Shown here: positions 8,796-58,638 of the stretch, in pieces
How the letters are laid out: the number at the start of each line of letters is the position of its first letter
Numbering within the stretch: the stretch's first letter is position 1
Assembly: GCA_963514005.1 (NCBI GenBank)
Contig: OY740814.1
Coordinates: 13,206,001-13,270,000 of the forward strand
Direction: 5' to 3'
Origin: Raja brachyura
Taxonomy: Eukaryota
Length of the DNA: 64,000 nucleotides
Notes under the pieces: generated by a model
Databases searched by the model: none
What the model saw: only the letters and a program-made list of their open reading frames with translations
What the model was told of the DNA's origin: nothing
Made by a program: the position numbers and the translations under genes

Positions 8796-10693
8796 TTTGG
8801 TGCTCAAAAGGAGGATGAAGAGAGTGATTTGGTGTGTAAAGTGATAGTGCCACAGAAACCTTTGATTGGGTCTCTTTGATAGCAACTTACTCAGTCTAAT
8901 TACAAGGAGACAAAGCATTAAGGGCCTGTAGAAAAGCAGAAAAGTGATACAGACCCTTTATTAAAAAAACTGGTCTAGCTTCAAGCCATGTCTCAATTCA
9001 CATTGCCTCGGAGGATCAGCGTGAAGACATTAGAGAGGGTCAAGAAAAGAGGATGGTTGCTGGAATGAGAAGCAACAGTTAAAAGAAGATATTGGAGAAG
9101 GAAATGCAGAATGCTCTGTCTCCAGATGTGATGGAGGCAAGTTTCACTTTTGAGGGAATTCAAAAAATATGTATTGAAGGAATTATTTCAGGGCTAAGGA
9201 CAAAGGACTAAAGTATAGGATTGTTTTGTAGAGAACTAGTATGGACATGCTGGGCCTCCTTCCCTATAATTGTTCTTGGAAATCAACAACAGTGAGAGTA
9301 CAAGGGAGCAAAAAAACAAACAACAATAATGATGAAGGGAAAAGGTGAAATTCAAGAGCAGCATTCTCAGGAGAGAAGACAAATCCAACAGCAACGATTA
9401 AAAGGTAAAGACTGAGGTTGTTGGAAATGCAAACAATGGCAAAAAAAGTACTGCCTGGCTCACCTGAGGGCAGGTACCAGGTGAAATTACAAGATTAACA
9501 TTTAGATGTGCAAAAACATTTAACCACCATATAGGTATTTTTAAGTATCAATTCCTTTGGTAAATGGACTGTGGTAAACATTTATGTGAGAGTGTGTATG
9601 TAGGTGAGAGAGGGAGAGTGTGTGCTTGTGCATGTGTGTGTGTATGCAACCCCTTTAAATGCATCTTTTGTAAAATGTTGAGGTTAAACTATGAGAGGTA
9701 ATTGCAATAGAAATGTACACTAGTAGTAGCCTCTGCAGCTGAAATCAGTAAACACAGCACATGACAAAAAAACAAACGTGGGCTGAAGGCGCTGCTTGGT
9801 AAAGCTACATTGAGTTTTTGCTAGTTGAATTAACACAGATATTATTGTATTTGTTTCGAGATCTGCTATTCTTTTAATAGTCAAGTTTCTTGAAGAAATA
9901 TTTCCAGAAATGGGGACATAAGTTAAATGCTGGTGAACAACCTTTGGTTAGTTACCTCGATGGGATCTTATTGCAGCAAAGTTTTACGTCAATACTGCAC
10001 ACTGCCCAGGACCGTGCAGAAGATTGTAAGTGTTAATGCTTTTCGATGCATGTGTTAAACACACATTGTCCACATATGTGTTCCCAATCTCTGTTTTAGA
10101 TTGGCTTATGATTATTGGTGGGATGAATCCCTGTCTGAAGAAGGGTCTCAACACGACATGGCACTGATCCCTTTTTTCCAGAGATGTTGTCTGACCCGCT
10201 GAGTTACTCCAGCTTTTTGAGTCTATCCTTGAAGACACACTTTTGATTTGGAAAGTGACCAAATAACATGGTGCCCTGTTGCAACCACCTGACAAAGCTG
10301 CCAAGACTGAGATGAAGATCAACCTAATCCAAAAAATAATGAGGAGCAGCAGCATCAGTGTTATGGACATCAATGTTGAGCCCGCGTACTCTATAGCTGA
10401 GGGTCATTGAAGCAGTAGGTGCACCTGTTGACATCACTTTGAATACCGCATAGTTGTATGTCACTGGAAGCCTCAAGTATGCCCACCGATATCTTGGCTG
10501 GACACAGTCCACACATAACCCCAGTATCCTTTCTCCACAATGCAGCAACTCCTCATGAGGTCCAGTAATTGAAGAAAATAAAATAATCTCCATTAACCAA
10601 GACTTTAAACGTACCCATTACCATTGCTCTGTCATGCAAGATTTCTGAACCCACACACTTAATCTTCAGAAAGGGACTTCAATTATGATGAAA

Positions 10694-10901
10694 TGTGTAG
10701 GAAGGAACTGCAGATGCTGGTTTAAACCGAAGCTAGACTCAAAAAGCTGGAGTAACTCAGCGGGTCAGGCAGCATCTCTGGAGAAAAGGAGTAGGTGCTG
10801 TTTTGGATCGAGAAGAAGGGACTTGACTCAAAACATCACTTATTCCTTTTCTCCAGAGATGCTGCCTGACCCGCTGAGTTTCCCCAGCTTTTTGTGTCTA
10901 T
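10694..10901. repeat. Hairpin-type short retroposed element (Penelope-terminal / hammerhead-like family)
   Basis: Inverted arms gctggagtaactcagcgggtcaggcagcatctctggaga / tctccagagatgctgcctgacccgctgag; TSD-like cttcaat(ta/cc)tgatgaaa at 10677-93 and 10902-18. Confidence 0.8.
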
Positions 10902-11693
10902 CTTCAATCCTGATGAAACTTGGAAAAACAAATGCAGTCCAAATTAAGCATCAATTAACTGACACAGTGCCAAAAGTTCCCGATTTTTATTTTCCACATC
11001 ACTGATAAAAATCGTATCTGCGCAAACCATGCAAGAAACAGATAGTGATGCAGAAAAGAAAACAAAAAAACTCTGGAAAAAATCTTGGAACTTACTTGCG
11101 TGCACAGATATCTTGGATGAAACGTTAAAACAAAACTCCTCCCAAAGAGTTAGGGATGGCTGAGGATAAATCATAGAAAATGCCGAAACAGTCTTGAAAT
11201 TATTTTTTAACATTCGTGAACAACATTCTTTTAATAGTTTGGACTCTGCAGTCAATAATTAGTTAAATGCTACCCACCCTGAACTGGAGAAAATATATTT
11301 CCACAAGAATTCTGCCATCTTTGGGACATGGAATATTCCCTTTCCTGAAACCTGATGATGTAAAGCTTCCTGTTCAACATGATACCTGCCCGCCTCTCCT
11401 CCGCATTCCAGCAATTTCTCTCAAATTGCAGGGTAATTGCAGTGGCACATAGCTTACATACTTCATATATTGTAGATGGCCAAACAATGGAAAGAGGCGG
11501 GGCAAGGTTACAGGTGATCACCAGATAAGCAGCAACTTTTTCAATCACCTGGTATTGTCGCCAATGATCCATGTGTGAACTGATAAATGTACAGTTTAAG
11601 AAAGAACTGCTGATGCTGGAAAAATCGAAGGTGGACAAAAAATGCTGGAGAAACTCAGCGGATGACTGATCTTTCTTCTCAAACTAGTATATT

Positions 11694-11833
11694 GGGGTGG
11701 GAGATTGCAACCTTCAAGTGGTCCGCCCTGTTTCAACAAATGCAATCAACCTGGCGTGCACAATCAAATAAGATCAAGTAGAACACATTGTCCTACAACT
11801 TTAGGATGTGCACGCCATATGCAAGAAGAAGAG
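11694..11833 (+). mobile_element. ~140-bp SINE-like retroposon with (AAG)n tail, copy 2
   Basis: Imperfect 13-bp TSD aaactagtatatt / aaactaatacatt at 11681-93 and 11834-46. Confidence 0.8.
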
Positions 11834-12329
11834 AAACTAATACATTGTAGACATCCAGCATCCCTGAGCTCTCCCATGCTCTGTAGCTGATTTATCGATG
11901 ATGTTTCATTTGATATGTCTGAAGGAAAGGAATCATTCTTGGATGTAATATTGTGTGTTGTAGCAATGTTAAGATCAGTTAATGCTAAGCTAATGAAAAA
12001 TTTGAAAATTCTCAGACACAGAACATGACATTCATGCTATTGTGTTCTTGCAAAAACTCTGTACATCAACGCTCTTAAAGGTCTTGCCATTTACTGTATA
12101 CTTTCCTCGTACATTTTATCTCCCAAAATGCAACACCTCACATTTTTTCCAGATTTAACGGCATTTACTATTTTTCCGCCCATATTAGCAACTGATCAAT
12201 ATCCTGCTTACCCTTTGATAATCTTCCTCAGTGTCCACAACTATGATGATTTTCATGTTGGCTGGAAACTTATTAATCAGCCGCCGGCATGGTTTTTTTT
12301 CCCCACAGTAGGGGAATCACAGGTGTGCG

Positions 12330-56623: not shown

Positions 56624-57490
56624 GAAAATGTTTAATCTGGGAAACTCATTGGCACCTCTCAGCTGAACACTGTTCAGACTGTATATGTAAACATGTATCC
56701 ACTGAGCTTGATTTTTCCCTCATTTGAAAACATTGAAAATAGGCAGTGAAGACATGACTACCGTGCTCATTCTGCTTAAAGTAAAATTGGAACATTTGAC
56801 TACAAATTACCATTTAATGCTTGGTCTTTATAGTGGAGTGTTTGATTCATGAGAAAGCTAATGGAAAGAAATGGGCAAAGATACTTTCCTTTTCAAATGA
56901 TTTGTGCTGTTGGCTCGATAGCAGTGATTTGATGCAGGAAGCTGTTTGCTTGCAGGATACTTATTGGAGTCCAATAGGTCAAATTAAAATGCACATGTTT
57001 TTTAAAAATTTAAAGGGTCCTTTCATCGGTAATTTAAGGTGAGGATAAATAATTAGTAAAAAATGATATTGATGACCAATAAATTATCAAAGGATTTTGC
57101 ATAAACAGACAGATGCTGCTTTGAATCGGGACTCTTCTTCAAACAAGAAGGGTCCCAACCCAAAGTGTTGTTTGCTTGTTTACCTCCATAGATGTTGCCC
57201 AACGCTGTTCCTCCATTAATTTGTTTTTGGAATCAACATTCCAGCATCTGGAGGGCGTTGTGGCTCAGCATTCAAATGCCAACTGCTTCCAAAGAATTTA
57301 TGCTGACAGATTATTGGAAGTTGTTTGAATACTTCACATATTAGATATTTAGTAAGTTTAGCATTGCAGAATGAGCCATTGTATATCATAAAAATCTCTC
57401 TTCCATAGAGCTTTGTTATCAGCCTTAAACATGTAAACTTTCAGCAATATGGGTTTTATTTTATATCTTTTAAAATTTTCTCCCGACCAG

Positions 57491-57711
57491 ATATTGTAAT
57501 CAAGTGCTGAGTAAAGATATCGATGAATGTGTGACACTGCTACTGCAAGAACTTGTTCGCTTTCAAGAACGTGTTTATCAAAAAGATCCAATCAAAGCTA
57601 AAATGAAGAGAAGACTTGTCATGGGTCTACGTGAAGTAACCAAGCATATGAAATTAAAAAAGATTAAATGTGTGATCATCTCTCCCAACTGTGAGAAAAT
57701 TCAGTCTAAAG
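57491..57711 (+). CDS. SECISBP2L: SECISBP2L exon 15 (YCNQVLSKDID...RRLVMGLREVTKHMKLKKIKCVIISPNCEKIQSK), L7Ae domain
   Basis: accag|A acceptor, G|gtacag donor; L7Ae signature GLREV. Confidence 0.97.
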
Positions 57712-58495
57712 GTACAGTAGATATCATCAGCACAAGCTTAATCTGATCTTTAACTGCAGCTCATTGCCACATTATTTCATCCTCTTGAAGAAATTCCCCT
57801 TGTTCCACCCTCAATTTCCTTATTTCTCAGTTCTGAAGGGTCCTGCACCTGCAACTTACCTTTTTGTAGCCATGCTGACCCTTCCCAGCATTTTGTTTTT
57901 ATTTCAATGTTTTCCTACTTGGTATTGTAGGAATCTAATGCTGATGTAAAGGGCTGGAATTTCCAGCGAGCATAATCAAAATCTGCCCAGAATGTTTAAG
58001 TGGATTCTGTGCTACAATTCTGTCCCTTTTCTGATTTGCAATGAAGTGTGGGAGTCCATGGGGAAGAGTGTGGGGTTTTGTAATCAAACTGACTTTGTAA
58101 CTAATGTAATTCTGAAGTATCAAAATAGCTTTCAATGAACCTACATATTGGAGGAAAGTAAAATATTTTTTTTAATTCAACTGGAACTTAACTTGCTAAG
58201 GGATTCCACACACAAAATTCAGTCCTCCTGGGCCACAAGGATAATTGAGAAATAATTGTTTTTAAAAAATGCAGTTGCATCTCATTCAGCAATATAGTGA
58301 GAATGCATGAAAACCATAACGTTCTGGATAGATCAGTGTGTTGATTAGTGAACACCACACAATGCAGCAAATGGAGGAGTGGGATATTATTGATTAATTA
58401 TTGATTATTTCACTCCATGCATTCCAATGTCAAAAATTATTTTCACCGAGTAATGATAGCATTTGCTTTCAATTTATCATAATTAAAACTGCTAA

Positions 58496-58588
58496 AGATG
58501 GACACAAAGCTGGAGTAACTCAGCGGGACGAGCAGCATCTCTAGAGAGAAGGAATGGGTGACGTTTTGGGTCGAGACCCTTCTTCGGG
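58496..58588 (-). repeat. Same family, single arm, just upstream of exon 16
   Basis: 7-bp TSD ctgctaa at 58489-95 and 58589-95; minus strand ccgaagaagggtctcgacccaaaacgtcacc. Confidence 0.8.
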
Positions 58589-58638
58589 CTGCTAATCTGG
58601 GCCAACATATTAATTAATTCATAGTTCCATTCTTTTAG

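Follow-up and report, generated by a model that had tools for sequence, protein, structure and literature searches.

Short hammerhead-bearing repeats of the skate Raja brachyura are probably end pieces of a Neptune-type Penelope-like element

Repeat copies within the window

The DNA studied here (the window) is a 64,000-nucleotide (nt) stretch of Raja brachyura (assembly GCA_963514005.1, contig OY740814.1, positions 13,206,001-13,270,000, forward strand), in which a repeat carrying a hammerhead-like motif is dispersed. A sequence-only reading had reported about a dozen related copies and had described them as short, non-autonomous, ribozyme-bounded retroposons with target site duplications (TSDs), mobilised by a Penelope-like element (PLE). 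Window copies were mapped by profile search (29 matches at E≤0.5, 24 at E<0.01; best E-value with the first profile in five shuffled windows, 0.81). All 12 reported places were found to hold one repeat, and at least five further copies were detected (marked "unlisted" below). Throughout, C3 of the hammerhead is numbered +1, which places the base after the predicted cut site at +29. Composite copies with inverted arms are given without a strand, and E-values are those of the profile search.

1036-1095, minus strand: decayed copy, -5 to +55 (E 2.6e-6)
10130-10232, plus strand: short-form copy with decayed core, -4 to +98 (E 6e-24)
10696-10908: head-to-head pair, left arm tailed (+12 to +129), right arm short (+3 to +99), 8-bp TSD at 10686/10911
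11595-11661, minus strand: 3′ portion including the tail, +62 to +129, unlisted (E 1e-8)
19370-19514: head-to-head pair by profile, tail arm +64 to +124, short arm -4 to +87
22922-23023, minus strand: old copy, +22 to +123, unlisted (E 1e-5)
23990-24119, minus strand: long-form tailed copy, -6 to +128, 12-bp TSD at 23979/24114 overlapping the first bases of the element
24896-24988, plus strand: short-form copy, -6 to +84, plus a weak inverted fragment at 24846-24880 (E 0.87)
27767-27955: head-to-head pair by profile, +2 to +96 and -3 to +109
28431-28609: old head-to-head pair by profile, unlisted
32069-32241: head-to-head pair plus a third inverted fragment (three pieces), by profile
33156-33261, plus strand: short-form copy starting inside the core, 14-bp TSDs at 33146/33252
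36243-36285, plus strand: fragment, +59 to +101, unlisted (E 1.4e-5)
37907-38211, plus strand: decayed piece of a PLE open reading frame (ORF), reverse transcriptase (RT) thumb to linker, by nhmmer; weak inverted match to the pseudo-long terminal repeat (pLTR) before it at 37831-37880 (E 0.19)
47321-47402, minus strand: old copy, +8 to +91, unlisted (E 0.001)
52503-52678: near-perfect head-to-head pair whose arms meet at the self-complementary ACGT, only the left one being tailed, TSD at 52486/52673
57112-57259: old copy by profile, +4 to +123, with a short weak inverted arm
58491-58593, minus strand: best-kept window copy, -5 to +99, C3-U4-G5 box and G12 mutated, two mismatches to the core

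Six of the 12 reported entries contain head-to-head inverted arms, a structure that the earlier reading had missed; junctions of window pairs lie in helix II (32117) and at ACGT (52605). Reported TSDs of 7-17 bp were upheld for duplications of 8, 10, 12 and 14 bp, the 10-bp exact TSD at 52486/52673 extending to 15 bp with one mismatch, while the 7-bp candidates at 32036 and 58480 were no better than chance. In agreement with the earlier caveat that no copy is fully intact, none in the window passes a strict minimal-hammerhead descriptor, the best having two mismatches. The PLE remnant previously placed at about 37905-38212 was recovered by nhmmer with a 70-sequence DNA profile (E 9.6e-8, with a high bias of 21 bits); the reversed-window control gave no match, and tblastn and blastn with partner copies missed this 37.9-kb remnant.

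Other features of the window include exons of an SBP2-family gene at 57492-57725 (plus strand), 58614-58800 and 62459-63082, with an L7Ae domain and a match to SECIS-binding protein 2 at E 7.6e-35. The acidic C-terminus suggests that this gene is SECISBP2L. The repeat copies at 52.5, 57.1 and 58.5 kb are apparently intronic in it, in both orientations. A Tc1-like transposon occupies 42945-44506, with a transposase frame (43252-43998, HTH_Tnp_Tc3_2) flanked by inverted repeats. A reverse transcriptase fragment of a long interspersed nuclear element (20740-22351, minus strand, RVT_1 E 3e-22), presumably CR1-like, has related fragments elsewhere in the window.

Abundance, motif and linkage to a Penelope-like element

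The ribozyme-like consensus proposed from the window is real: its 31 letters occur exactly 12,457 times in the genome (reversed control, 0), and a slightly degenerate intact core matches at 62,714 places. Arrangement was assessed in 80 stretches of 10 kb, placed arbitrarily along large contigs (0.8 Mb of a 2.7-Gb genome). A profile search of this sample gave 349 matches, of which 336 extend past +40 and are here called arms, the 13 shorter ones being excluded from end counts. The arms cover 4.75% of sampled bases and outnumber matches to the element body described below by 336 to 37. Solo copies account for 164 arms and 63 head-to-head pairs for 126; a further 28 have an upstream untranslated region (UTR), 13 are in adjacent direct tandem and five are tail-to-tail. 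If the sample represents the genome as a whole, its approximately 265 insertions scale up to a total of roughly 0.9 million.

The motif combines the core boxes with one additional A following A9. Its helix II has 4 bp and closes on a 4-nt loop, its helix I has 2 bp, and ACGU and a GUC or GUU triplet are present, as are the G10.1-C11.1 pair and the palindromic 15.2-16.2. Helix I had been put at 2-3 bp, of which 2 bp were retained, and helix II has been redrawn. A hairpin loop of 2 nt is sterically unlikely, and for this reason four pairs closed by a 4-nt loop are the better drawing. The strict descriptor found 37 matches in the 0.8-Mb sample and none in three Markov controls. The hammerhead search with Rfam models that had been suggested as a check (cmscan) returned no hammerhead at E≤10 in the window or in three intact-core loci, where only weak hairpin families below cut-off appeared.

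Changes between subfamilies fall in loop 2, at H17 or at a pair kept as G-U, and none falls in the core. The subfamilies are very close and other pLTR stretches are as constant as the core, so that core constancy does not amount to proof of selection. A pattern with N7 variants gave 2,411 matches against 17 in the control; the first 100 were essentially the same family, leaving no distant family for covariation, and no older subfamily with a longer helix I was present among the collected loci. Folding predictions suggest that the purine-rich 5′ part pairs with a pyrimidine tract behind the cut site: of 65 intact copies, only 4 give helix II a predicted probability greater than 0.5 (unformed in 61), and the helix is predicted to form when the RNA stops at +31. 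Helix I has 2 bp, not the 4-5 bp of most minimal hammerhead ribozymes (min-HHRs). According to Cervera and De la Pena (PMC4209133), a Drosophila virilis PLE hammerhead variant also has a 2-bp helix I, and membership among PLE min-HHRs is therefore not excluded by this feature. The motif thus fits the published PLE minimal type I hammerhead, with cleavage itself a prediction.

At several exact-match loci the repeat was preceded by the end of a GIY-YIG endonuclease (EN) gene. Searching with this EN protein gave 118,866 first-look candidate loci, and in 24 of 30 loci selected by the EN the repeat lay on the same strand within 700 bp past the gene end, mostly at about 200 bp. Direct reading of longer loci revealed a partner RT with DKG and YIDD motifs, a C-x4-C-xx-C linker and a CxxC within the GIY-YIG motif. 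Pfam matches of the partner (RVT_1 E 6e-4, GIY-YIG E 2e-4 to 0.035) were all below curated cut-offs and came from four of six broken frames. At the opposite end of the ORF, 12 of 29 loci selected by its N-terminus had a tail-reaching copy directly upstream on the same strand; where the junction was read, the copy continues into a common sequence whose ATG lies at about +165. Of the 12 copies, seven begin between -7 and +1 and lack a 3′ UTR, three follow on the 3′ UTR of another copy (partial tandem), and two have other starts (-26 and +65). Since the repeat stands both behind the EN gene and before the ORF, it is at once a pLTR end and the element start, the two positions having been seen in different loci.

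As judged from these sequence features, and by the definitions of Craig et al., the repeat is the pLTR end of an EN-positive (EN+) PLE, probably of Neptune or Nematis type. The motif traits and the RT-EN linkage bear out the earlier assignment to a minimal type I hammerhead of the PLE kind served by Penelope-like machinery. The notion of a separate non-autonomous, retrozyme-like family is not supported: the repeat is a piece of an autonomous element, and each of four tagged subfamilies was also found joined to the PLE 3′ UTR in some locus set.

Several further arrangements were noted among the loci. Young stubs, as we call copies of this end piece, have inserted into the 3′ UTR of older copies of this PLE (L009/L031, L042, L234), which fits reported self-targeting of PLE pLTRs. 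Units of 630-710 bp (L001:788-1590 and L066:3848-4573) consist of a stub, the EN end, the 3′ UTR and a second stub, and with two same-strand hammerheads they would be the best natural substrates for testing dimer cleavage. Two open frames of 360 and 393 aa (L070:142-1221 and L075:128-1306) resemble, by eye, a DIRS-like tyrosine recombinase and RT/RNase H.

Copy ends and competing explanations

Half of the sampled arms (168 of 336) start at -8 to +4, and only five start near the cut site, at +27 to +31. Arm ends are similarly concentrated, with 155 at +86 to +107 and 125 at +120 or beyond. The two favoured 3′ ends, about +95 and about +131, lie approximately 65 and 100 nt past the cut site, the longer one in AC-rich sequence. 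In public contigs and reads, loose ends cluster at the same three boundaries (1082, 1180 and 1209-1216 on L197, where C3 is 1086). The tail between the two favoured ends is distributed unevenly in the 63 head-to-head pairs: one arm carries it in 46, both in 2 and neither in 15 (p 3e-5 versus independence). Among sampled copies scoring at least 40 bits, 14 of 114 solos and 15 of 51 pairs lie between exact TSDs (9-17 bp), compared to about 1% in shuffled flank pairings. Genome-wide, 2,323 tight head-to-head junctions were found, with CAG-(A/T)-CTG in 29 of the first 50 listed (by eye). Within pairs, the partner arm was never a closer match than the best copy elsewhere (0 of 41), a comparison that cannot separate one template from two.

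Among 6,097 young copies that lack the templated C before A(-2), the first 100 carry G in 48, A in 39 and T in 13 (by eye). In young copies with a clear TSD, all selected to start at -2, the TSD and A(-2) are separated by 0-9 bases. Cut-site starts were compared with those at a control position: raw counts were 635 at +29 and 221 at +33, and internal deletions explained 17 of 30 inspected matches at +29 but 3 of 30 at +33. After removal of deletions the counts were about 275 and 199, or about 610 and 620 allowing for the chance that random flanks pass. This crude comparison thus gives no excess of starts at the cut site. Copy ends lie at the 5′ edge of the motif and about 65 or 100 nt beyond the cut site rather than at GUC, which does not support the earlier view that ribozyme cleavage bounds the copies. 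One clean TSD-flanked start at +29 was found (L287), and in L283 and L291 the ORF-start sequence is joined directly to +29, which could record a template jump from cleaved RNA; given these three loci, rare hammerhead cleavage may take place in vivo.

Taken together, these observations support a model, to which we assign a probability of about 0.82, in which each repeat represents the initial 95-131 bases of a Neptune-type PLE, inserted alone or paired between variable TSDs, likely by internal RT starts on uncut RNA. Element RNA would begin at about A(-2), inside a CAGT that resembles the initiator consensus, and a G before it could be cap-derived. RT would start at one of the two internal sites (+95 or +131) of the uncut RNA and run off its 5′ end, leaving a stub, and a start at the downstream pLTR copy of a read-through RNA would instead give a 5′-truncated body with its 3′ UTR. 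By analogy with an anole PLE studied in vitro, the GIY-YIG domain would nick both strands and each end could prime. Head-to-head pairs would arise by annealing or fold-back of cDNA 3′ ends at short self-complementary stretches, namely CAG-N-CTG before the core, helix II or ACGT. The hammerhead is probably misfolded and inactive unless the element protein or a second RNA helps, and insertion would need no cutting.

A number of points weigh against this model. The start at -2 is deduced from genomic copies; an edge at this point could also result from a splice acceptor or from a strong stop of the RT, and the upstream UTR indeed ends in a pyrimidine tract plus AG. At -3, G is in excess but A is frequent too, and the pattern itself selected these copies; arm ends, having been read from local alignments, are blurred by a few bases. 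No intact full-length PLE ORF was found, the longest PLE-derived frames among 150 matches listed being 330-370 aa. The anole PLE is an inexact analogue, with an ORF that starts within the hammerhead versus about +165 here. Finally, copies made in trans from solo-copy transcripts would look identical. Splicing of the ORF stop to the AG before the hammerhead was considered as a source of the 5′ edge and was rejected for that donor, the joined form having one genomic match.

A further proposal, which we regard as doubtful, gives the hammerhead chiefly a signalling role, marking the 5′ end and promoting pairing: two uncut RNAs would pair via ACGU and be passed to a dimeric RT-endonuclease, which would prime both cut DNA ends from separate internal starts (+95 and +131), and the two run-off cDNAs would join at CAG-N-CTG. 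If true, about a million stubs would form a genome-wide record of twin-priming.

One alternative is a non-autonomous family like a short interspersed nuclear element (SINE), in which stubs are transcribed from their own internal promoter or by read-through, are copied in trans by PLE protein, and mostly descend from other stubs. In its favour, stubs far outnumber bodies and include the two sites where RT starts; poly(A) RNA from a related organism is rich in the repeat, and pLTR sequences sufficed for trans mobilisation in a rotifer (PMC3846280). Against it, in a related-organism poly(A) run, of which about 6% was read, both strands were equally represented, as passive read-through predicts, and molecule ends did not pile up, although fragmented reads cannot show cleavage ends. 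Read-through templates should also leave flanking DNA 5′ of -2 inside TSDs, where the gap is 0-9 bases in the selected young copies. Moreover, of 18 sampled copies of the youngest subfamily, 4 are joined to the PLE 3′ UTR, and copies joined in this way exist for each of the four tagged subfamilies. Mobilisation in trans from solo-copy transcripts may occur, but as the main route it appears quite unlikely.

Much less probable still is a retrozyme without long terminal repeats, whose tandem units would be cut by dimeric hammerheads into monomeric circles and then reverse transcribed. The many intact cores, the self-complementary ACGU, occasional same-strand pairs 240-710 bp apart, the single start at L287 and a reported relationship of PLE pLTRs to retrozymes (bioRxiv 10.64898/2026.07.22.740005) all speak for it. 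Yet DNA copy ends do not fall at the cut site, with +29 starts no higher than the +33 control, and the arms of a head-to-head pair carry their motifs on different strands. Helix I has 2 bp, and in most intact copies helix II is predicted not to form. The rarity of tandem arrays also argues against a retrozyme: adjacent direct tandems account for just 13 of the 336 arms, a count limited to the 0.8-Mb sample, so that rare arrays may exist. The hairpin shape of the copies, with 63 of about 265 sampled insertions being inverted pairs, might further suggest a miniature inverted-repeat transposable element (MITE) of a DNA transposon. This explanation is refuted, to near certainty, by TSDs that vary from 9 to 17 bp and by the linkage of the repeat to an RT-EN ORF of a retrotransposon; in addition the arms are unequal and most copies single-armed. 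The earlier view that this is no DNA-transposon MITE with fixed TSDs was therefore correct.

Comparison with known systems

PLE minimal hammerheads, tails and inverted copies have been published before, and as a discovery the repeat is small. Its value lies in numbers: occupying about 5% of the bases sampled, with possibly 0.9 million insertions, it offers sharp in vivo statistics on where PLE cDNA starts and stops, and the skate copies support the single in vitro study of PLE mechanism, which was made on a different clade. For annotation it carries a warning that such hairpins are not MITEs, microRNA precursors or retrozymes. No paper on this family in cartilaginous fish was found in a literature search with sparse coverage of subscription journals, and two supplementary files of PMC4209133 held no shark or skate entry.

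The min-HHRs described in PMC4209133, where these motif traits are listed and the extra base is traced to earlier hammerheads, share with the skate motif the CUGANGA and GAAA boxes, the unpaired base between 9 and 10.1, G10.1-C11.1, the palindromic 15.2-16.2 and the pLTR location. They too are mostly dispersed single motifs tied to truncated PLEs, with some close opposite-strand pairs, and their dimers show only low cleavage. The skate helix II of 4 bp differs from that of the Schistosoma min-HHR (7-8 bp), while helix I is as short as in D. virilis, and the skate count is far above the 2,000-9,000 per genome given for PLE min-HHRs.

Neptune and Nematis EN+ PLEs (10.1101/2021.04.23.441226; PMC3846280) resemble the skate element in their RT, CX2-5CxxC linker, C-terminal GIY-YIG with CCHH, and partial tandems, as well as in the inverted 5′-truncated copy, a tail of 30-40 bp at one end, variable TSDs, a junction palindrome and an initiator (Inr)-like pLTR motif. 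Arkhipova et al. (2013; PMC3846280) read junction palindromes as self-priming and noted the Inr-like motif in a pLTR. Unlike in those elements, the stub alone is the dominant product in the skate; rotifer solo pLTRs lack TSDs and were ascribed to recombination or deletion, whereas skate solo copies have TSDs.

In the in vitro study of the anole element PAc (Poseidon, Anolis carolinensis; Frangieh et al. 2024, PMC11167929), the protein was shown to cleave and extend both strands, the tail is set by two internal RT starts, and the hammerhead is protein-assisted and dispensable for insertion. PAc and the skate repeat both have two discrete AC-rich 3′ ends slightly over 100 nt from the hammerhead, and neither gives any sign that the cut site sets insertion ends. 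PAc belongs to the Penelope/Poseidon clade and its ORF starts at stem II, in contrast to the skate ORF, which begins beyond the tail, at about +165. Non-LTR retrozymes (Cervera and de la Pena 2020, PMC7229834; Li et al. 2026, bioRxiv) share a type I hammerhead, a non-coding nature and a relationship to PLE pLTRs. They form tandem repeats of 150-450 bp with canonical hammerheads and circles, whereas the skate repeat is dispersed, single or head-to-head, and its hammerhead minimal.

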